The notes under the pieces: model-generated
Told to the model about the DNA's origin: nothing
The model's database searches: none
Seen by the model: the letters and a program-made list of their open reading frames with translations, nothing else
Program-made: the position numbers and the translations under genes
NCBI GenBank assembly: GCA_021208605.1
Contig: JAJOJK010000003.1
Coordinates: 9,481-73,480, forward strand
From: Candidatus Woesebacteria bacterium
GTDB taxonomy: Bacteria > Patescibacteriota > Microgenomatia > UBA1400 > UBA1396
Reading direction: 5' to 3'
DNA: 64,000 nt
Shown here: positions 2,890 through 58,398 of the stretch, one piece after another
Numbering within the stretch: position 1 is the stretch's first letter
Layout of the letters: each line of letters starts with the position of its first letter

Positions 2890-3459
2890 TCAAGCAAAAA
2901 AGAGCCAGGCGAGAAACGCCACTAATCCAAAAGCGCCTAACCCCAAAATAACAGCGCCCAAAAAGGTGAGTCGCTGCGTCACTGACTCATGCTTGTCGAC
3001 AATTTCTTCTAAAGTCGCTGCTTGCTCCATTCCAGCATCGTGATCCCTAACTTTTTCAGTCGCCGACGGACCCTCAAGCTCTGGTAACGTCTGTTCGTAC
3101 GCCATCTGGCGCAAGTCTTGCGACTGCTGCACGAGCATCGTCGTCGAACCAATACCAAGTGCCAATACAAATACCGCCACCATGCCACCGAGAACACGTA
3201 AATCTAATTTCGGTAAAACGCGTTGTCGTGGGGACAAATTATTCTCCCAAATCTCGGTCGCGCCAGCCCGTTCATCTGGTTGCGGCGTGGCTACTGGTGC
3301 GGGAGCGACATGAGCGGAGATATGGGCCATTCCAGCCGAGACAGGTCGCGTAGCACCGGTACCACCAGCGCTCGAAATCTCTGGGAAATGACTCGACTCC
3401 TCTTGAATTTCTTTGAGGAGCTCATCAAGTGATTTGTGAGTCGACATATTGGCATTCAT
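2890..3459 (-). CDS. hypothetical membrane protein
   Basis: Track ORF 2890..3549. The likely start is MNANMSTHKSLDELLKEI at 3459. It has a C-terminal TM helix (LTFLGAVILGLGAFGLVAFLAWLFF). Confidence 0.45.
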   Translation of the reverse strand: MNANMSTHKSLDELLKEIQEESSHFPEISSAGGTGATRPVSAGMAHISAHVAPAPVATPQPDERAGATEIWENNLSPRQRVLPKLDLRVLGGMVAVFVLALGIGSTTMLVQQSQDLRQMAYEQTLPELEGPSATEKVRDHDAGMEQAATLEEIVDKHESVTQRLTFLGAVILGLGAFGLVAFLAWLFFA

Positions 3460-3502
3460 AGACAGTATTCTGGTACCTGCGTATTTCTCTCTTCTCTTTA
3501 CA

Positions 3503-4999
3503 CTACGCTGATCGCATACTTTGGCGCGTAACAAAAATGCCGCCCGCAAAGAAGATCAGACCGACCCCAACCAGAAAGACCGTCATATCCGAGCTCCCTG
3601 AGACTGGCTGTGCCGAATGGGTAGCCGGCGTACTGACCCGAGGAGAAGCCGTTGGAGTAGCGGAGGCTACTGGTGTGGGAGTAGGCGTTGGGGTTGACGT
3701 AGCGACAGGAGTGGGTGTTGGGGTTGGCGTCGCTAAAGTTCCAGATGGAGAGGACGTGAAAGCGGGTAAGTTTGACTCGCCATTGGCCAACACTAAGAAG
3801 GTTCGATTGATCTTTTGCTGGTTCCCTTGGTCATCGGTGTAGGTGACGGTAATGGTGTGCTCGCCAGGTTCAAGATCTTCCGGCGGCGTCCAGGCCCAGT
3901 TACCAGTGGAGTCCACGGTAGCCACGTCGAAAATTGGTTGATTGGAGTGGACTTCGATTTGGACAAATCCGTTTGCCGGAGCGGTGCCGAGAAATTCGGG
4001 TCGTTGGGTCGAGATCTGCTCGTTGTTTTCGAGTTCGATTTCGACTGGACCGGTCGTCACGGTGGTGGTCGTGGTCGTTTCGGTTTGCTCGTCGACCATG
4101 CTGCCAAAGGCGCCACCGGAATCATCTGTTGATGTGGTATCGGGAACAGCTGTTGGCGAAGGCGGAGGTGTTTCTGCTTCGTCAACGACTATGGGAGCTT
4201 CGTTTTCGGCACCGAAGGTGATATCGGTCATCGGTGAGAGTGCACTCACGGTAGTGTCGACATTCACCGTTTCATTGCGCTGGGTTCCCTGGACTTGCAC
4301 AGTAACTGGATCAGTGGGCTCATACGTGTAGAGAGCCGATAAGTCGGCAGTGCGCAAATCGGTGAGCTGCACGGCCCAACTCCCATTGGCTTTGACCAAG
4401 GCGGACAATGGCGAAGCACCTTCAATGGACAAATAGACTATTGATCCCTCAGCCGGGTTACCAACTTCGTTCAACACGTTTCCGTAGGCGGTGCGGGTTT
4501 CGCTGTCGGAAGAAATAGCGCGTGCGGTGCGCACGGCAAAGGGCGCGCCGTTGTTATCAAATTCCGAACGCTCACCGGTCCCGAGAACAAAATAGTACTG
4601 CGTGGAAGGGTCCAACCCTTGCACCGTCACGTGATGTGACTGGTAGGAGCCAACGGCATTCGCCAATTTGTCGCGGTCGTCACGAACTTGCACGTTGATG
4701 CGATTTTGATCTGTTCCGTACTTAAGGTATCCGGGAGCAGATAAGTCAGTCAAAAAAGAAACGGTAAAGCTGGTATCAGTAATATTGGTAATGCGAACTT
4801 GGCGGGGAACGGCGTCTTCGGAAGCGCGCGGTAAAAAGTTCGAAGCGGTGTCGGACTGCACTAAACTTAATCCGGCGACAACACCCACGACCAAAATACC
4901 CAAGCCGAGAAGCGTGGGAATCCTCTGCTGGAGCAGGCTACCGCGTGGAGACCGTTGCTTTGGTCCAAACCACCGGCTTAAAAAAGAGGAAGCAGGCAT
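3503..4999 (-). CDS. surface protein with fibronectin type III-like domain, Pro/Thr-rich linker and C-terminal TM anchor
   Basis: N-terminal TM/signal (LLGLGILVVGVVAGLSLV), FN3-like block (ITNITDTSFTVSF...GLDPSTQYYF), PTPTPTP linker, C-terminal TM VFLVGVGLIFFAGGIFV followed by a basic tail. Lies upstream of the PilN/O-like genes. Confidence 0.55.
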   Translation of the reverse strand: MPASSFLSRWFGPKQRSPRGSLLQQRIPTLLGLGILVVGVVAGLSLVQSDTASNFLPRASEDAVPRQVRITNITDTSFTVSFLTDLSAPGYLKYGTDQNRINVQVRDDRDKLANAVGSYQSHHVTVQGLDPSTQYYFVLGTGERSEFDNNGAPFAVRTARAISSDSETRTAYGNVLNEVGNPAEGSIVYLSIEGASPLSALVKANGSWAVQLTDLRTADLSALYTYEPTDPVTVQVQGTQRNETVNVDTTVSALSPMTDITFGAENEAPIVVDEAETPPPSPTAVPDTTSTDDSGGAFGSMVDEQTETTTTTTVTTGPVEIELENNEQISTQRPEFLGTAPANGFVQIEVHSNQPIFDVATVDSTGNWAWTPPEDLEPGEHTITVTYTDDQGNQQKINRTFLVLANGESNLPAFTSSPSGTLATPTPTPTPVATSTPTPTPTPVASATPTASPRVSTPATHSAQPVSGSSDMTVFLVGVGLIFFAGGIFVTRQSMRSA

Positions 5000-14640: not shown

Positions 14641-15204
14641 TTATAGGCCTGAGGGTCGGTCCCTCACCTGCTTTCTCCCGCTTAGCCACAGCGCCAGCGC
14701 AAATCGCACTAAATACGCATACGCTTCTTCCCGCGGAATCACGCCCTCAGTCAGGTACCCAAACATACCGCCCTGTTGATTGGTGTTCGTTTTCCCTTCA
14801 ATCTTGTCCATTACTTTCCCGAGCTCTTCGCCGGAGGCGAGTCCATCGACAATATACTGCGGCAGAGCGAAGCGGTTTCCAGCCAGGCTTTGTTGTTTGC
14901 CCGCGCGATCCTCAATATGTACCCAGACAATCGACTGTAACTCTTCACCAACAGACATCAAACCGCCCTCGAGTCCGAAAGCCATGTCCACGCTCGGGTC
15001 TGCTTCCAGAACAGCCAGTGCGCGATTGCGGGCACCTTGGCGCGTTTCGTCATCGGAGTACGGCTGATCGCTGACGCCACTCTCGACTGAGTATCCCTGG
15101 ACTTCATACTCAACAGACTCTCCCCGTCTGGAAAACACAAACTCCACCGCCGACTGCACGGCCGCCACTTTTACTGGATTGGTACTTCCCACGCCTATCT
15201 TCAT
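14641..15204 (-). CDS. yjjX: inosine/xanthosine triphosphatase, YjjX family
   Basis: MKIGVGSTNPVKVAAV...SGVSDQPYSDDETRQGARNRA matches YjjX family signatures. The start ATG at 15204 overlaps the sufU stop (ATGA). Confidence 0.75.
   Translation of the reverse strand: MKIGVGSTNPVKVAAVQSAVEFVFSRRGESVEYEVQGYSVESGVSDQPYSDDETRQGARNRALAVLEADPSVDMAFGLEGGLMSVGEELQSIVWVHIEDRAGKQQSLAGNRFALPQYIVDGLASGEELGKVMDKIEGKTNTNQQGGMFGYLTEGVIPREEAYAYLVRFALALWLSGRKQVRDRPSGL
14644..14667. repeat. REP type A (TAGGCCT-GAGGGTCGGTCCCTCAC)
   Basis: TAGGCC palindrome plus AGGG-TCGGT-CCCT hairpin. Overlaps the last codons of the YjjX-like gene. Confidence 0.6.
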
Positions 15205-15629
15205 TGCTGCTCCCTTTCTGCACTCCCTTGTACTACTGCCCAGTCCTCGCCACTGCGCAGCCCTTGCCAAAATAACAACGCACACTTTTGTCGACTTGGT
15301 GAAATATGCAGCAACTCCAGTTCTCTCAGTACATCCTCCGCTGACATACTTTCCCATTTTTGTATTGATGAACCAACTAATTTTTCGCTCAGCAAACTCG
15401 CCGCCGCAGTGCTCACTGCGCAGCCATCGCCTTGCCAAGTAACCGCTTTTATAATTCCTGCTTCATCAATTTTCAAAAAAATTTCCAGGGAATCACCACA
15501 ACTCGCATTCGCCGCTCGCATAACAAAAGTAGCATCAGGCAACTCGCCCCAATTGCGAGGATGTTGCGCGTGTTCCAAGATGTGTTCGCGGTATAAATCG
15601 TCCACGGAAGCTCCTCGACTAGACGCCAA
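15201..15629 (-). CDS. sufU: Fe-S cluster scaffold SufU/IscU-like
   Basis: DLYREHILEHAQHPRN plus conserved Cys residues (ASCGD, GDGCAVS). Located downstream of sufS. Confidence 0.75.
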   Translation of the reverse strand: MASSRGASVDDLYREHILEHAQHPRNWGELPDATFVMRAANASCGDSLEIFLKIDEAGIIKAVTWQGDGCAVSTAAASLLSEKLVGSSIQKWESMSAEDVLRELELLHISPSRQKCALLFWQGLRSGEDWAVVQGSAEREQQ

Positions 15630-16869
15630 AAATGGTTTGTACTTGTTCTAAAGCCGCAATTAACTGATCAATATCTTCGCGCGTGTTATACACCGCAAAA
15701 CTAGCGCGCGTGGTGGCGACCCAGTCTTGCTCGGTATGCAGTGGCATCGTGCAGTGATGGCCAGAGCGAACGGCCACTCCAGAGCGATCTAAAATTTGCG
15801 CCACATCGTGCGCGTGGACGCCTTCGTACGTCCAGGTCACAGAACCAACTCGCGAGGCAAACTCTGCACCCGGCTCCGGACCAATCAACCGCACCTGCGG
15901 CACCTGCTGGAGCTGCTCATAGGCATACTGCACCAAATCGTGCTCATGCGCTTGCAACTCGGACCACCCAATCTCTTCTAAAAACTCGATCGCCGCTTGC
16001 AACCCAACCAAACTAGCTACATCTGGAGTTCCGGCGGTAAAGCGCTCAGCAAAATCTTCATGAAAACTCGTTTCTTGGGTACGGACCTCGGCGATCATGC
16101 CGCCACCGTACAACACCGGCGCAATCTCTTGAGCCAGGCGTTCGCTCACCACCAAACCGCCGATTCCCATCGGACCATACATTTTGTGCCCAGAGAAAGT
16201 CAGGGCGTCAACCGGCCAGCGATCCAAACGACTCGGCATATGCGCAGCCGACTGAGCGGCATCAACCGCCACCAGCACGTTTTTGCGCACACCCCACTTG
16301 CGCAGTTGGGCATCAATTTTCTCGAGAGGCGCCACCACGCCAGTCACATTAGACACCGCCGCCGTGGCGACCACCCGCAAACGATCTTTTTTTTCTTGCA
16401 GCAACTCAGCAAATGCGTTTATCGGCCAGGTAGATTGGTCATCCATAGGGAGCACAATAAACTCGCAACCAGTGCGCTGCGACACCATCTGCCAAGGCAC
16501 GAGCGTGCTGTGGTGCTCTTGCATGGTAACGACGATGACGTCGCCTGGTCGTAAAAACTTTTCCCACATCTGGACGAGGAGGTTCATGGCCTCGGTGGAG
16601 TTGCGGGTAGAAATCAATTGGTCGGCACGAGCACCAAAAAAAGCTGCGATTTTCTGACGAGCTTGCTCGTAGCGCTCGGTGCTCTCGTCACTTAAAGTGT
16701 GTACGCCACGATGAACGTTGGCGTTGTGGGTGCGGTAGTAGTCGCTGATTGCGGTGATCACACTCTCTGGTTTTTGCGTGGTGGCGGCGTTGTCGAGATA
16801 GACGAGTTTTTTGCCGTGTATTTGGCGTTGCAAGATGGGAACTTGTGTCTGCGTCTCATGAACTTTCAT
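15619..16869 (-). CDS. sufS: cysteine desulfurase, SufS class
   Basis: PLP-lysine motif SGHKMYGPMGIGGL and active-site RSGHHC. Length 416 aa. Confidence 0.88.
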   Translation of the reverse strand: MKVHETQTQVPILQRQIHGKKLVYLDNAATTQKPESVITAISDYYRTHNANVHRGVHTLSDESTERYEQARQKIAAFFGARADQLISTRNSTEAMNLLVQMWEKFLRPGDVIVVTMQEHHSTLVPWQMVSQRTGCEFIVLPMDDQSTWPINAFAELLQEKKDRLRVVATAAVSNVTGVVAPLEKIDAQLRKWGVRKNVLVAVDAAQSAAHMPSRLDRWPVDALTFSGHKMYGPMGIGGLVVSERLAQEIAPVLYGGGMIAEVRTQETSFHEDFAERFTAGTPDVASLVGLQAAIEFLEEIGWSELQAHEHDLVQYAYEQLQQVPQVRLIGPEPGAEFASRVGSVTWTYEGVHAHDVAQILDRSGVAVRSGHHCTMPLHTEQDWVATTRASFAVYNTREDIDQLIAALEQVQTIFGV

Positions 16870-18445: not shown

Positions 18446-19031
18446 ATGTCCAAATTCATCTTCATCGGCCTCGGAAATCCTGGTGACCAATACGCCAACA
18501 CACGGCATAACGCTGGTTGGCTCGTGCTCGATGAGCTAATCAAACTGTGGCAAGATCCGGCCATTCCGGCCGCGTGGCGGTATGAGAAAAAAAATTTACG
18601 GCGAGGTACTCAAGCTGACACATGGACAACACGAAATCATGTGCGTCAAACCGGATACCTACATGAATGAGTCCGGTCGAGCTGCTTTGGCGGCCGTCAA
18701 ATGGTTTTTCGACATTGACCCAACGACTCGTGACCAAACACCGCTGCGCAATGTTGTTGTCCTGCACGACGATCTCGATATCGTCACAGGAGAATACAAA
18801 CTCAAATTTGCTTCTGGGCCACGAGTGCACAACGGTTACAACAGCGTGACGGAAGTGTTACATACCAATCAGTTTTGGTCGGCGCGCATTGGCATAGACT
18901 CCCGCGAGGGAGATCGTTCCATGCCTGGCAAGGCGTATGTCCTGCAAAAAATGCAACCAGAAGAACGCCAGAAATTACGCCAAACCGCCAAAATACTGGC
19001 TGAAGAACTCCCCTACGTCGTGCTACAGTAA
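18446..19031 (+). CDS. pth: peptidyl-tRNA hydrolase, frameshifted at an A8 tract
   Basis: N-terminal [25 protein letters not shown] (track ORF 18446..18670) continues in the +1 frame (ORF 18582..19031: IYGEVLKL...PDTYMNESG...). The frames join at AAAAAAAA 18587-18594. A7 would give a continuous Pth. Confidence 0.75.
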
Positions 19032-19036
19032 AAAGC

Positions 19037-20276
19037 ATGTCTTGGCGCAGTAGCTTTCACGAATTTTCTCGGCATCACGCCCTGCCACAGGAGCTGCGGC
19101 ATTTTTTCTTTGGTATTTTTTTCTACCGTTTAGGTGCCGGTTTGATTTCTTTGACCGGCCCACTGTTCCTTTTTACGATCGGCCAAAACTTTCCCTGGCT
19201 GCAAAATGTGCCTTTGAACACAGTGTCAAAAGGTCTTTTTTTTGTGTTTGCGTCCTATCTTTTGGAACGGTTGTGGATTCTCCTGCTCACCCAACCGATT
19301 GCACGCTGGATTCCCCGCATCGGATTCCATACCAGTATGGTGTTAGGACTCTTATTTTTATCCGCCCGCACTGCGCTGTTTGACTTCTTTTTGCGCGTCC
19401 CGAGTTTATGGCCGTTAGCAATGCTCTTGGCGGCCCTTGGTGTGCAGTTCTTCTGGATTGGATACCACACTTACTTCACTCTGGAAGCAAAAAGTTCGAA
19501 AATTGGCAGTGAAGTGGGCGGCATTGAGTTTATGTCTCGTTTGGCTCAGGTGTTGACCCCACTTCTTGGAGCACTTATTGCCGGCACATTTGGATTCGCC
19601 GTTTCCTTGTGGACCGGTATCGTGCTCTATGGAGTTGCCATTGCTTTCTTACTGCACTTACCGAAACTACAGTCCAAATATTCTTGGCAGTGGAGTGATT
19701 TCTGGCAGTGGCTCACTGACCGTGACCTGCGTCGAACCACCTTGGCCTTAGCTGCGTACACTTGGGAAGAACTTGGCGTCATCGTCTTTTGGCCCATATT
19801 TTTGTTTATTACTTTCGGCAACGTGGAGTCAGTGGGGTATATTTTGTCGACCGCTTCTTTTCTGTCTTTACTGTTTATTTACTTGTCCGGTTGGGTTTTC
19901 GATCACAAGAAAAAAACGTATCGGCAGCATTCAAAAAATGAGCGGTATTCTCCTCAGCTTTTTGTGGATTCCGCGACTCATTTTTGCTGGTTCGCCAGTA
20001 GTGTTGGTGCTAAACGACGCCATTGATCGACTCACACACAGCGTCTATTCAACACTGTTTTATGCGTCCATGCTCTTTTGCGCGCGGGGCAAACATGTCT
20101 ATCGATTTTTTGTAAATCGCCAAGTCGCGATCAGTCTCTTGTGGAGCGTTTTATTGTTGCTGAGCATGGCACTCCTCTTCCTGCACTGGAACTGGATACT
20201 CCTCTTTGCCAGTTTCTTTGGAGCCGGTATGATGAGCTTACTCTTCACCAAAGAAGTCAAAAAACTCAAACTGTAG
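19037..20276 (+). CDS. MFS-type transporter, frameshifted at a poly-A tract
   Basis: Multi-TM protein split between track ORFs 19037..20026 and 19773..20276 (+1). Frames can be joined at A7 (19910-19916) or A6 (19933-19938). Confidence 0.6.
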
Positions 20277-20283
20277 TATCCAT

Positions 20284-20628
20284 ATGAGTGATTCATCATC
20301 GCTGCAACAATTGTTGCAAAACTACTCAGTCAAAAATCAAGATGATCCGAAATACATTGCCCACGAATTTCAGGACTTTGGGTACCGCATGGCCATGGAA
20401 CTCACCAATCCCAACGATCGCGAAACCATCAGTATGTGCATGGGCTTGGCCAAAAGAAAACCGCGCGCGCTTCTTGAACAAGCACTCAGCTACATCAAAG
20501 ACGCCAAAGCCAAAAACAAAGTCGCGCTTTTTCTGTGGAAAATAAAGGAACTGGAAAAAGAGAAACAGGAAAAGTCAGCAGAAAAGAAGAAAAAAGAACC
20601 ACAACAGACAGCTCTTCCCTGGGAATAG
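20284..20628 (+). CDS. hypothetical protein (114 aa), Lys/Glu-rich C-terminus
   Basis: Open frame with no recognisable motif. Confidence 0.4.
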   Translation: MSDSSSLQQLLQNYSVKNQDDPKYIAHEFQDFGYRMAMELTNPNDRETISMCMGLAKRKPRALLEQALSYIKDAKAKNKVALFLWKIKELEKEKQEKSAEKKKKEPQQTALPWE

Positions 20629-35268: not shown

Positions 35269-35298
35269 AAAGTCATTGTACTACAATCGAGAACAATC

Positions 35299-35319
35299 GG
35301 GAGACACCCCTAGGCCTAT
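35299..35319. repeat. REP type B (GGGAGACACCCC-TAGGCCTAT)
   Basis: Inverted partner of 33917-33934. Confidence 0.65.
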
Positions 35320-35335
35320 AAAAAACAAAAGCCCC

Positions 35336-37549
35336 CTACGGCGCCACCTCGCGCCAAATATACCGCGGCACCTTCATTTCCTCGGGAGTATTCAGCAAGA
35401 AATCAGCGCGGTATTTAAATAACTCGGTTGGAGTTAGGTTGTTCTCCACTTTGCGGCCGGCGTAGTCATCGTAGTCGCGTTCCATGACGATGCCGCTCCA
35501 GCCCACAAACGTGCCTTCGCCGACAAATTTGCCGTCGCCGCCGTTTTCGGGGCCGCGACTTGGCAGAAGAATTTGTCCGTTGGCAATAAAGACACCCTCC
35601 ACCAGGCCGTCGGTAGCCGTCAAATCAGCATGCTCGACTGCTGGATCAATCGTAATGTCGCCGCTGGCAATAATCGCCGTAAAGCCGCCAACCGCAGTTT
35701 GGATTTCGCCCGCAATCGTGACGTTGCCGTCCACAAAAACCACAATCTCTTCACCGCTGGCCACGGACCAGTCGTCCTCAATGCGTAAATCGCCAGAATG
35801 GTAGTAGGCGTTGATGTCGTCATTTTGCGGAGTCAGCGTTGGCTTTTGGGCGTCGTTGGCGCTGGTAGTGAAGTCGTCTTCTGGCGTTTCGGGGAATTTG
35901 TACAAGCGCAGGAAGTACTCGTAGCGCTCCTGGACGACTTTGCGATCCACGGTGCCGACGATATTGCGACCATCTTGGTCAACCGACGCCGTCTGATTCC
36001 CCGCCTCCTGGCGCAGATCAACCACGCCGCCACCGGTCATCAAGTATCCAGAAGTATTTTCGGTATCAGCCGCTTGCGTAATCAGGTATGGCTGACAACC
36101 GGCGTCAGTCGTACAAGAATCAGGGATGTAGTTTCGGATCGCGGTACCCGTCTCCTGCAGCGCCGTCACCGGCCCTCCCGCAGCCTGGAACCACGGATCC
36201 CGCGCCTCGATCAAGAAGAAATTCACACCCGCCTGCGGCGAACTAATCCCGCTGTACACACAGCCGGCCGGACAGGTACAGGTGTACAGGTGCGAGTCAC
36301 CAATGTTGAGCTGAAGCAAGTTATTTCCTGGATCCCAGTAAGGCGCTGAAGCTTGGTAGGTGCCATCTGCGGCTACACTTCCGGCGGCGTACTCTTCGCC
36401 ATTTTGCTCGATCCCCACTGCCGAAGCACCCGCCTGGAGCGGAGGCAAAGAATCGCCAGTAGTACACACCCCACCCGTGAGCGAGGCGGTGTTGTTGCTA
36501 TCAAGATACACCGTGCCAGTCACCGGCGCGTGCACAGTGAAGGTGATATAGGAAGTCCAGGAAGAATAATCGGTGCCACAATCGATATTGAGCGCCCGGA
36601 CTCGGAACTGATAATTCAATGCCGTCGGCGTGAAATCCAAACGAGAAATATTTACCGTGCCACAACGAGCATCCGGATCACTACACGAAACAACACCTTG
36701 TGGGAAAAGTTCATATTGCCAACGGTCAGCTTTATCGGTATTCGTCCAGTTGATTCGTACCTGACCAGTACTCGTATTCATCAAAGCAATACCACCATCG
36801 GTCGGCGTATTGATTGTTGGGCGAGGCGGCGCACCGTTATCAGCACTACTACACGTTCCGCCACAGCCATTACTGCCACCGCATTCCGGGCCACTCGGAC
36901 AACTCGGATTACAAACAATATCACCACAACAGATCTCTCCCGCCCCACAGGATCCCGAACCAGACGGCCGACCCACAACACCACAGTTATCTATGCCAGA
37001 GAAACAAGCCGGACAGCTACCGCCGCCTCCGCCGCCACCACCGCCGCCTCCGCACTCTTGACTAATCCAAGCCGAACACGTCTGCGTATTAGATCGACAC
37101 CCACCAATACAATCCCCACAAAAAATCTGCCCCGAGGGACAACGGTCGTCGGTGGTGTCTACGGAGCAGCTGTTAGCCGCAATACAGTCGTGAGTTCCAC
37201 AAGTCCCACTTTGATTTGAACAGGTAAGCCCGATGCTGTTGCAATCACAGGAGAAGGTGTTGGCGCAGGTGGTTGTTAAATCACAAGTTGCCAGAGGGTC
37301 TAGACAGTCTTCATCTCGAGAACAACTCTCTCCTGCTTTTGGACCACTATTACATTCTCTTCGTGTTGTTAAATTTCCAACAGTAGCCGAACCTGAACAA
37401 TCTTGTGCATATACAGGTGTAACTAATAAAGATACAAATCTATCAAAAAAAGATTTTTTTTCTCCATATCGTAAAAAATAATCTTGTTTCTTTTCTAAAA
37501 GAATCAGCTGCTTTGATAAATTGCTGATACTCACTGCTAGCAACCACAA
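35336..37549 (-). CDS. large Cys-rich secreted protein with Gly11 tract, FN3-like region and C-terminal beta-helix-like region
   Basis: N-terminal Cys-rich module (about 45 Cys), GGGGGGGGGGG encoded by GGN codons (~37030-37065), FN3-like segment, C-terminal repetitive beta-strand region. The start is uncertain: an ATG at ~37470 would give a signal-like MEKKKSFFDRFVSLLVTPVYA if an A8 tract were A9. Confidence 0.55.
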   Translation of the reverse strand: MWLLAVSISNLSKQLILLEKKQDYFLRYGEKKSFFDRFVSLLVTPVYAQDCSGSATVGNLTTRRECNSGPKAGESCSRDEDCLDPLATCDLTTTCANTFSCDCNSIGLTCSNQSGTCGTHDCIAANSCSVDTTDDRCPSGQIFCGDCIGGCRSNTQTCSAWISQECGGGGGGGGGGGSCPACFSGIDNCGVVGRPSGSGSCGAGEICCGDIVCNPSCPSGPECGGSNGCGGTCSSADNGAPPRPTINTPTDGGIALMNTSTGQVRINWTNTDKADRWQYELFPQGVVSCSDPDARCGTVNISRLDFTPTALNYQFRVRALNIDCGTDYSSWTSYITFTVHAPVTGTVYLDSNNTASLTGGVCTTGDSLPPLQAGASAVGIEQNGEEYAAGSVAADGTYQASAPYWDPGNNLLQLNIGDSHLYTCTCPAGCVYSGISSPQAGVNFFLIEARDPWFQAAGGPVTALQETGTAIRNYIPDSCTTDAGCQPYLITQAADTENTSGYLMTGGGVVDLRQEAGNQTASVDQDGRNIVGTVDRKVVQERYEYFLRLYKFPETPEDDFTTSANDAQKPTLTPQNDDINAYYHSGDLRIEDDWSVASGEEIVVFVDGNVTIAGEIQTAVGGFTAIIASGDITIDPAVEHADLTATDGLVEGVFIANGQILLPSRGPENGGDGKFVGEGTFVGWSGIVMERDYDDYAGRKVENNLTPTELFKYRADFLLNTPEEMKVPRYIWREVAP

Positions 37550-37721
37550 TTGGTTTATGCTCTAGATAATACAAATTTTGTAGTAAAAGAGTTGAAATTA
37601 AAGAATTTTTTTCTTGTTCTGGTAAATTTTGAACATAACCATTGTTTACATACCATTTCACAAAAAGTATCTGGTCATTATTTTCCGAACTTAAAGAACT
37701 AACTTCAACTGCATCTATTCC

Positions 37722-38030
37722 TTACAAAATTTTATTATTCTCTTGTGGATCTGATACTAGCTCAAAAACTACTTTAGAAATCGCTACCTCATTAGCCTCA
37801 GCGGAAGAACTCTCTCTATAAGTCAGTATTCCGTTCGAAAAAATGTTAAACGAATACAAATTTGAATGAAAAATTGACTTATCAATTGTAATATCATAAT
37901 TGGTGTCACTTATAAATTGAATGTTTGGTGCATTTTTGTATTTTTGTAAAAACAACCAACCAATGCTCACAACAGCTATACTAGCAATTAATAAAACAAA
38001 AAAAATACGTCTGAAAGAAATAACCTGCAC
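37722..38030 (-). CDS. hypothetical small membrane protein in AT-rich island
   Basis: N-terminal TM FFVLLIASIAVVSIGWLFL. Lies in a ~700-bp segment of ~28% GC. Confidence 0.35.
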   Translation of the reverse strand: MQVISFRRIFFVLLIASIAVVSIGWLFLQKYKNAPNIQFISDTNYDITIDKSIFHSNLYSFNIFSNGILTYRESSSAEANEVAISKVVFELVSDPQENNKIL

Positions 38031-44445: not shown

Positions 44446-44586
44446 TCCTGCTATAAGGCTTTTATTTTTTTTTTACAAAATTGACTGATTTTCATAGGTA
44501 CACTAAGAATTGCATGCTCCGAAATGGAAGTCAATATTGAGAACGCGTTGGAAATTTGCCACTAAAAACCTCTAAGAAAATTTTAA

Positions 44587-48642: not shown

Positions 48643-48664
48643 TAGGCCTAAGGGTCGGTCCCTC
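48643..48664. repeat. REP type A (TAGGCCTA-AGGGTCGGTCCCT-C)
   Basis: Canonical copy. Merges into the 8-bp tandem array. Confidence 0.65.
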
Positions 48665-48765
48665 TCTATCTCTCTATCTCTCTATCTCTCTATCTCTCTA
48701 TCTCTCTATCTCTCTATCTCTCTATCTCTCTATCTCTCTATCTCTCTATTTCTCTATCTCTATAC
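48663..48765. repeat. tandem repeat (TCTCTATC)x~12.9
   Basis: Ten perfect 8-bp units, one variant (TCTCTATT), one more perfect unit and a partial unit. Lies between the rpiB start and the VIT-family stop. Confidence 0.9.
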
Positions 48766-54144: not shown

Positions 54145-55178
54145 TCACTCAAATAAAGAAGGATAGCCTTCCTCGACGGTAGTGATGATGGCTTGCGAAC
54201 GCGTGGCGGCATCTTGAATGAGTTCTTGGTTCATTTCGTCGAGCTCGGAAAAGACGTCGTCGAGCAGAAGCACTGGCAGCTCTTGTCGTTTTTGTTCGAT
54301 GTACTGCACTTCGGATAACTTCCACCAGGCTAACGCGAGGCGTTGTTCACCGCGAGATCCGTAGCGCTCAATATCGCGCCATTCGCTGCCGCGTTTGACT
54401 CTCACGATGACATCGTCTTTGTGGGGACCGACTAAGGTGTAACCCGTGGACAGCTCGGCGCGTTCGTATTTTTTGATGCGTTCTTCGGAAATGATGGAGT
54501 GGTCGTACTCAACTTGGTACTCTTCTTTGAAACCTGGTTGCTGGTCGAGCCAGTGAAGGAACTCTGCTCTGGCCTGGTGGAGTATTTCGCCATTGTCGAT
54601 GAGAAGCTGGTCCCAATAGAAAAAATCTTGGCGTTGTGCTTCGCCTTCTCGCAGTGCTCGTAAAAGACGATTCCGCCGCCGGAGGGCTTTGTCGTAGTTT
54701 TTGCGCGCTCGTCGGTACTCGATGGAAACTTGGTCGAGTAAGGTGTCTAGCAAGTGGCGGCGCGCAGTGCCGCCACTCTGAAACAACTCCATATCTTCTG
54801 GCGTAAACACTACCGTAAGAAGTTGCCCCGTGGCATCGCTGGCTCGACGACTGACACCGTTGACGCGATAGAGACGCTTATTCGTTTTTTTTGCCTTGGA
54901 GAATACCGTGGGTAAAGAGTTGTTCGAGTTTGGTTTCGTCGCCTTTTTTCGTCTTGGAATTTGGCCATGACACGAGCGAGTTCTTCATCCCACTCGATCA
55001 GTTCATCGGTTTGCTTGGCGCGCCAGGATTGGCCGGTGGACAGGAGGGCGAGAGACTCGATGAGGTTGGATTTACCGGAGCCGTTGGGGGCGGTGAAAAC
55101 ATTCAGGCCTGGCTCAAACGACCAGGTGTGGTCGGAGATGTTGCGGAAGTGTTGGAGCCAGAGTCCAGTAATGATCAT
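54145..55178 (-). CDS. recF: DNA replication/repair protein RecF, frameshifted at a T6 tract (plus-strand coordinates)
   Basis: N-terminal Walker A APNGSGKSNLIESL (track ORF 54810..55178) and the remainder (track ORF 54145..54810). The frames join if the T6 at 54944-54949 were T7. Confidence 0.75.
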
Positions 55179-55200
55179 GGGGAGACACCCCTAGGCCTAT
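55179..55200. repeat. REP type B (GGGGAGACACCCC-TAGGCCTAT)
   Basis: Perfect 22-nt inverted repeat with 55297-55318, spaced 96 bp. Abuts the recF start codon. Confidence 0.65.
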
Positions 55201-55296
55201 ATCTTTTTTATTTTCTTTAGTATATCTCAAGAGGGCGCGTTATTGGCAGATTCGTTAGGATGAAAAAATGAAAAAAGCGCTGATAGTATTGGAGTT

Positions 55297-55318
55297 ATAG
55301 GCCTAGGGGTGTCTCCCC
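55297..55318. repeat. REP type B (ATAGGCCTA-GGGGTGTCTCCCC)
   Basis: Inverted partner of 55179-55200. Lies 9 bp from the lepA stop. Confidence 0.65.
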
Positions 55319-58065: not shown

Positions 58066-58398
58066 CTATCTGTGTTTATTTTTTTTCGACAAAATGTGGG
58101 TTATTGATTTACCATCTTTGGTTACTACAACCTGTATTGCATTTTCTTTTTTTAAAAGGGAGACAGAGCTCTTACTATCAATACTGAAAACTGGTTTCTC
58201 ATTTCGCATATTCATGACTTGAAGTGTGCTACCCCACACTTCGACGGATAGTTGGTTAAAATCACCCTTATGTATGACGCCAGATCCTAGACTGTCGGTC
58301 ACCACCACCCATTCACCAGATTCAATATCTTCCAGCTCAAGAGCCACCTGCAAAGCGACAATGCGACTCATCTCGCCGTGATCTGTCCAGTTTTCCAT
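58066..58398 (-). CDS. hypothetical small protein (array member 3)
   Basis: Predicted beta-rich. Putative paralog of member 4. Confidence 0.45.
   Translation of the reverse strand: MENWTDHGEMSRIVALQVALELEDIESGEWVVVTDSLGSGVIHKGDFNQLSVEVWGSTLQVMNMRNEKPVFSIDSKSSVSLLKKENAIQVVVTKDGKSITHILSKKNKHR

Follow-up and report, generated by a model that had tools for sequence, protein, structure and literature searches.

The recF gene recorded in a 64,000-nucleotide stretch of DNA from Candidatus Woesebacteria bacterium (the whole stretch is referred to below as the window) is split, and this split is highly likely to be artefactual, the product of miscalled homopolymer lengths when the window was assembled. 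As recorded, the gene carries two lesions, each of them an A-run that is one base over length; this reading is based on homologs, which fix the frame between the two runs. Judging from the comparison of sequences, the cause would be read or consensus error and not mutation. The recF of the organism is very probably an ordinary, intact gene for a RecF of 343 amino acid residues.

recF in the window

The gene is located on the reverse strand, and its parts are as follows.

54145..55178, minus strand: recF, 1034 nt as recorded and 1032 nt (343 codons and a stop) once both runs are corrected
54810..55178, minus strand: N-terminal ORF, 122 aa, carrying the Walker A motif
54145..54810, minus strand: C-terminal ORF, 221 aa from a GTG, in another frame than the N-terminal ORF
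54944..54949, minus strand: first run, A6 on the coding strand (T6 on the plus strand), with A5 as the in-frame state
54893..54943, minus strand: inter-run segment, 51 nt in the third frame, encoding GDETKLEQLFTHGILQG
54885..54892, minus strand: second run, A8 on the coding strand (T8 on the plus strand), with A7 as the in-frame state

The inter-run segment as recorded is out of frame with both neighbouring ORFs. With two frame changes, an uninterrupted recF frame is absent from the record of the window, and the pieces to be expected from gene callers are a 122-aa N-terminal and a 215-221-aa C-terminal one. The failure of the open frame is a property of the record and not demonstrably of the organism, because an intact gene of 1032 nt is present in four other assemblies of the same population.

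The protein obtained after correction of both runs scores 250.6 bits against the RecF profile TIGR00611 (an NCBIfam equivalog with a cut-off of 172 bits), over profile positions 1-339 of 339, and 70 bits against SMC_N. It contains segments which we take, by eye and from knowledge of the family, to be Walker A (APNGSGKS, residues 30-37), the signature region (GSRGEQRLAL) and Walker B (LLLDDVFSELD). RecF is an SMC-like ATPase of the RecFOR recombination-mediator pathway, and the repaired protein matches this equivalog from end to end. It differs from a typical RecF in that the recorded gene is interrupted twice and in its neighbourhood of lepA, recF, a carbohydrate kinase and Fic, while a common neighbourhood of recF elsewhere is dnaA-dnaN-recF-gyrB.

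Choice of the frame repair

Three repairs of recF were compared. R1 adds one base at the A6 run, as proposed in an earlier, sequence-only reading of this DNA (T7 for T6 on the plus strand), R2 removes one base at A6 and one base at A8, and R3 adds one base at A8. Each of them gives an open recF frame. The TIGR00611 scores are nearly equal, 248.4 bits for R1, 249.3 for R3 and 250.6 for R2, and the profile is therefore unable to pick the repair.

The homologs can do so. A search of about 5.8 billion proteins retrieved RecF homologs with 62-89% identity and chain lengths of 341-354 aa. In all these homologs the disputed stretch is GDE(T)KLEQLFTHG(I/V)LQGKK, which is matched by R2 alone; the homologs end this stretch as GDE(T)KLEQLFTHG(I/V)LQGKKTNKRLYRVNGV. 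The inter-run segment is conserved in the homologs P0001-P0004, P0006-P0008 and P0013. The 20-residue bridge KATKPNSNNSLPTVFSKAKK created by R1 is nonsense and has no match in the homologs. The R2 protein shares 100% identity with the intact 343-aa RecF of four other assemblies (L014 and L016 among them) and also with P0121, which carries the NCBI name RecF [Candidatus Woesebacteria bacterium].

The earlier reading was correct in that the N-terminal and C-terminal ORFs are in different frames, that a T6 is present at 54944-54949 and that T7 in its place gives a continuous ORF. Comparison with orthologs, which it had named as a check, confirms that the recF frame is broken but supports R2, not R1. 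Its call for one more A errs in direction as well as in number, since one base fewer is needed at each of two runs, and the second run at 54885-54892 had been overlooked. It is important to note that the smallest-edit repair of a frame can yield a wrong protein: the single-base fix of recF scores near the true sequence on the profile.

recF in seven assemblies

The same organism was found by exact-protein look-ups in three MAGs at NCBI, GCA_021208925.1, GCA_021209405.1 and GCA_021208155.1 (MAG-925, MAG-405 and MAG-155), and the NCBI label on these proteins is Candidatus Woesebacteria bacterium. Logan assemblies of the same organism are available for the runs SRR12390694, SRR12390696, SRR12390697 and SRR12390700 (Logan-694 to Logan-700). 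A fourth MAG, with the locus-tag prefix LRY58, has a RecF fragment of 215 aa (P0123) that agrees with the C-terminal piece in the window, and it is probably the assembly from which the window derives. The lengths of the two recF runs are given below for the seven assemblies compared at this gene.

Window: first run A6, second run A8
MAG GCA_021209405: first run A5, second run A7
MAG GCA_021208155: first run A5, second run A8
Logan SRR12390696: first run A6, second run A7
Logan SRR12390700: first run A5, second run A7
Logan SRR12390694: first run A5, second run A7
Logan SRR12390697: first run A5, second run A7

Apart from both runs, recF is base-for-base identical in all seven assemblies. All four combinations of run lengths are seen, A5/A7 (in four assemblies), A5/A8, A6/A7 and A6/A8. 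The first run is A6 in the window and in Logan SRR12390696 only. The second is A8 only in the window and in MAG GCA_021208155, and A7 in the other five; the over-call from A7 to A8 recurs independently in two MAGs, while the Logan assemblies of the matching samples read A7. Between the window and the Logan contig SRR12390696_1598, the second recF run is the sole difference in 15,281 bases.

The closest relative (contig CAYUUK010000003.1) has a RecF 89% identical to that of the window, with a DNA identity of 76% in recF. It keeps the second run as an in-frame A7, and at the site of the first run it has GAGCGAGGC, which is in frame and contains no run. This contig (L002/L003, assembly GCA_964447905.1) shares the gene order lepA, recF, kinase, Fic, ligase with the window. 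Its assembly is titled 'uncultured Pseudomonadales bacterium', a label that looks wrong beside the Candidatus Woesebacteria of the window population.

Other interrupted genes

Three further genes of the window are interrupted in the record.

18446..19031, plus strand: pth (peptidyl-tRNA hydrolase), split by A8 at 18587-18594, with A7 as the in-frame state
19037..20276, plus strand: 412-aa MFS-like membrane protein, split by A7 at 19910-19916, with A6 as the in-frame state
35336..38030, minus strand: 897-aa Cys/Gly-rich protein, probably secreted, recorded as two ORFs of 102 aa and 737 aa

For pth and the MFS-like gene the earlier reading had called for one A fewer, and both repairs hold. The change from A8 to A7 in pth gives exactly the 194-aa Pth of four other assemblies (142 bits in Pfam); the A8 is common to the window and contig L017 of Logan SRR12390696. 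The change from A7 to A6 in the MFS-like gene restores exactly the 412-aa protein found in all five other assemblies, and A7 is an allele of the window only. The match of this protein to MFS_1 is sub-threshold, with 23.5 bits against the Pfam threshold of 33.4.

The 897-aa gene has two window-only lesions in the alignment of six assemblies. The first is an extra base at 37480/81. The second, at 37724/25, is a GT/TG swap that creates a TAA, where the window has TTTTGTAA and the others have TTTTTGAA. Repair of both joins the 102-aa and 737-aa ORFs into 897 aa from the GTG at 38030, and over 832 aa the result has the same sequence as an ORF of Logan SRR12390700. The earlier suggestion of A9 for A8 at ~37465, near the start of the 737-aa ORF, is not borne out, as the A8 at 37454-61 is the allele of four of the five other assemblies. 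Against Pfam, no family scores above threshold for the 897-aa protein, the sole hit being DUF7305 with 16.9 bits. At about residues 200-400 the repaired protein has a very Cys-rich region as well as 11 consecutive glycines (ECGGGGGGGGGGGSC).

The set of broken genes differs from assembly to assembly, and the genes broken in the other assemblies are as follows.

MAG-405: aminotransferase and lgt broken, Fic truncated
MAG-155: 1022-aa beta-lactamase-fold gene, aspS/asnS-type tRNA synthetase, Fic, ligase and lgt broken
Logan-700: Fic truncated
Logan-694: lgt broken
Logan-696: 1022-aa gene broken by a private A9, where the window has an intact A8

Measured against the outgroup, the allele of the window is broken at recF, intact at Fic and probably intact at a small gene at 58147. 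A broken allele at recF together with an intact one at Fic is as expected of random error.

The lgt gene shows opposite 1-bp changes, 497 bp apart, in both L007 (Logan SRR12390694) and L006 (MAG GCA_021208155). The changes are CC to C at 22062-63 and T5 to T6 at 22559-63, and the gene is split in both assemblies. These shared changes suggest that the MAG and the Logan assembly of this sample were built from the same small set of reads.

A mechanical search for runs at which a 1-bp edit would join two ORFs returned many false positives. The fusions at 8562-68 (dsbA with a reductase), 15357-15632 (NTPase, nifU and aminotransferase), 20259-20590 and 2896-3537 were rejected; the genes concerned are separate and intact in the sibling assemblies.

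Indel pattern across the window

The loci of all assemblies were aligned to the window, and about 61 kb were covered. The differences among the assemblies comprise 59 indel sites and no more than 4 substituted positions, of which two make up one GT/TG swap adjoining a T-run. Almost all are 1-bp changes in the length of a run, and the share of runs that vary rises steeply with run length.

Run length 1: 0.02% variable
Run length 2: 0.07% variable
Run length 3: 0.5% variable
Run length 4: 1.4% variable
Run length 5: 2.5% variable
Run length 6: 3.4% variable
Run length 7: 22% variable
Runs of 8 or more: 79% variable (11/14)

This steep dependence, the 59 indel sites against 4 substituted positions and the differing sets of broken genes agree with the earlier suggestion of systematic homopolymer-length errors.

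For runs of 7 or more, 12/29 are variable in coding and 7/22 in non-coding sequence (p=0.57). Long coding runs thus vary as often as intergenic ones, which would be in keeping with a lack of filtering by selection. The corresponding comparison for runs of 3-4 gives p=0.52, while runs of 5-6 are depleted of variation in coding sequence (4/267 against 5/62, p=0.014).

The assemblies depart from the majority allele to different extents.

MAG-155: 33 departures
MAG-405: 12 departures
Window: 8 departures, plus the swap and a tied recF A6
MAG-925: 5 departures
Each Logan assembly: 1-4 departures

Nine 1-bp edits and the swap, about 1 per 6 kb, would bring the window to the majority or in-frame state, and 6 of these 9 1-bp lesions are extra bases. 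The sharing of alleles pairs the assemblies by sample: the window with Logan-696, MAG-405 with Logan-700, and MAG-155 with Logan-694.

Compared with the window at 37576-37630, MAG-155 (L010, GCA_021208155) is longer by seven bases in 55 bp, with one added in nearly each short run of an AT-rich stretch. The consensus of this public record is very poor at this place, in the manner typical of long-read consensus with weak support.

Origin of the run-length differences

Long-read consensus sequences keep homopolymer indels that give frameshifted gene calls, especially below about 40-fold coverage, and in long-read MAGs such indels fragment the gene calls unless the assembly is polished or deeply covered (PMC9262707). 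The pattern in the window fits this description: the dependence on run length is steep, there are almost no substitutions, the genes that are broken differ per assembly, and the repaired proteins are identical to intact versions. Homopolymer errors of long reads (Nanopore R9.4-type, PacBio) and of flow-based methods (454, Ion Torrent) are of the same kind, that is, 1-base changes in A/T runs. The assembly of the window is very probably a long-read-derived MAG.

The most plausible course of events may be described as follows. Error-prone reads at modest coverage would have carried homopolymer-length noise into the consensus. In recF, A5 would have been written as A6 and A7 as A8, 51 nt apart, and the frame would then shift twice. 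The same noise, about 10 lesions in 61 kb, may also have broken pth, the MFS-like transporter and the 897-aa secreted protein, and noise of the same kind would break other genes in the sibling assemblies.

However, some observations differ from what is known of such assemblies. About two thirds of the lesions in the window are extra bases, an excess that is more typical of PacBio or over-polishing than of raw Nanopore R9.4. The lower variability of 5-6-base runs in coding sequence also counts against an artefact. In addition, two of the lesions, the A6 of recF and the A8 of pth, are both reproduced in Logan SRR12390696 by a different assembler. These two would be real in the sample if SRR12390696 consists of accurate short reads independent of the reads of the MAG.

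This leads to the alternative, put forward in the earlier reading as genuine slippage-prone tracts, that recF A6 and pth A8 are real in the SRR12390696 population, as recent slippage mutations arising from error-prone replication of homopolymers. Assembly errors would then be limited to the second recF run and the remaining sites private to the window. Two different assemblies of this sample share both alleles, where the assemblies of the three other runs have A5 and A7, and alleles in general are shared along sample lines. The Logan assemblies, with 1-4 departures from the majority against 5-33 for the MAGs, may also derive from more accurate reads. Nevertheless, we regard this alternative as unlikely. 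The lesion breaks pth at codon 49 of 194, and an inactivating majority allele of this gene is implausible because pth is essential in bacteria. Between the Logan assemblies there are about 10 run-length differences and zero substitutions, while a real mutator lineage would be expected to gain base substitutions too. The private A9 of Logan-696 splits the 1022-aa gene, whereas the window shows the intact A8 for that sample; this demonstrates that the read set of SRR12390696 is noisy or heterogeneous. Moreover, the variable runs are where the Logan contigs end.

The broader form of this alternative, in which the shared or sample-specific run alleles are real (recF A6 and pth A8 in 696, lgt in 694, Fic in 700), is quite improbable. 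If it were true, homopolymer tracts in this organism would switch fast and knock out even housekeeping genes, with no base substitutions detected between samples. The Woesebacteria cells would be kept alive via transcriptional slippage or population heterogeneity, and the mutational regime would be specific to an ultra-small, possibly mismatch-repair-poor CPR bacterium.

A second alternative is phase variation, in which some of the long runs would be contingency loci that switch genes of surface proteins and the scatter among assemblies would reflect heterogeneity of the population. Two places come into question, the T10 at 44465-74, where the gene for a dockerin-domain protein has its 5' end, and the runs close to the beginning of the 897-aa protein. 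These genes do encode secreted or surface proteins, and the run at 44465-74 splits the other six assemblies 3:3.

T9 at 44465-74 (503-aa dockerin-domain protein): MAG-925, MAG-405, Logan-700
T10 at 44465-74 (487 aa from a GTG): window, MAG-155, Logan-694, Logan-696

The Logan contigs break at this run, which suggests mixed reads. In the window (44465-44480) the T10 is adjacent to an A4. Housekeeping genes, however, are affected equally often (recF, pth, lgt, the tRNA synthetase, the aminotransferase and the ligase), runs of 8 or more vary in 11/14 cases whatever their position, and phase variation leaves recF unexplained. As a general explanation it is very unlikely; at 44465-74 alone may one reasonably consider real phase variation of a surface protein instead of noise.

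The weakest alternative, and an extremely improbable one, is recoding, in which the frameshifts would be real and bypassed by transcriptional slippage or by +1 ribosomal slippage, with full-length RecF and Pth still being made. The two recF lesions and those of pth and the MFS-like gene are all one extra A in an A-run, and a 1-base deletion in the transcript would correct each. In the ribosomal variant the Lys-tRNA would slide on AAA AAA before a rare AGG codon, and the first recF run, read in the recorded frame, is indeed followed by AGG (GAA AAA AGG). Polymerase slippage at poly(A) tracts has been reported to rescue frameshifted genes in insect endosymbionts with reduced genomes. The window resembles these in belonging to a reduced-genome lineage with A-run lesions in otherwise undegraded genes. 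In the endosymbionts, however, accurate sequencing has confirmed the frameshifts, which are fixed in the genome, whereas the siblings of the window are in frame and its runs are short (6-8). Recoding sites are conserved among orthologs, but the frame here is simply intact in the 89% identical relative and in four assemblies of the window population, and conservation of the frameshift in orthologs or other isolates, the mark of recoding, is not seen at recF. Recoding of recF would also take two independent slippages 51 nt apart, one of them on just six A.

Repeats in the window

A short intergenic element of the form TATAGGCC(T/C)·(A/G)·GGG-loop-CCC occurs repeatedly in the window.

55179-55201 (plus), 55296-55318 (minus) and 35298-35320 (plus): 23-nt form, GGGGAGACACCCCTAGGCCTATA
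Starts at 14642 (plus), 45693 (minus) and 48641 (plus): related copies

The 23-nt form has 3 occurrences against 0 expected, and the TATAGGCC core has 7 against about 2 expected. The 94-nt spacer between lepA and recF is flanked by two perfect copies in inverted orientation, and one copy directly abuts the ATG of recF. A role as promoter or leader motif is conceivable, as is a small REP/MITE-like repeat. Several G/C runs within the copies vary among assemblies (14658-63, 45676 and 48652-62).

A tandem repeat is also present between the rpiB-like and VIT1-family genes.

48662-48761: (CTCTCTAT) x 12.5, 97% matches, intergenic

Inside this repeat the Logan contigs of two runs come to an end, and its edge differs by 3 bases in MAG-155.

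Implications

The interruption of recF is very probably not a biological feature, and the window gives no ground for claims of recF loss or of recoding. At least four genes, recF, pth, the MFS-like transporter and the 897-aa secreted protein, would be falsely broken in 64 kb, and the sibling MAGs are the same or worse. Pseudogene counts and metabolic reconstructions of this CPR lineage would accordingly be misleading unless the assemblies are polished, and the same applies to repair or translation functions that appear to be 'missing' from it.
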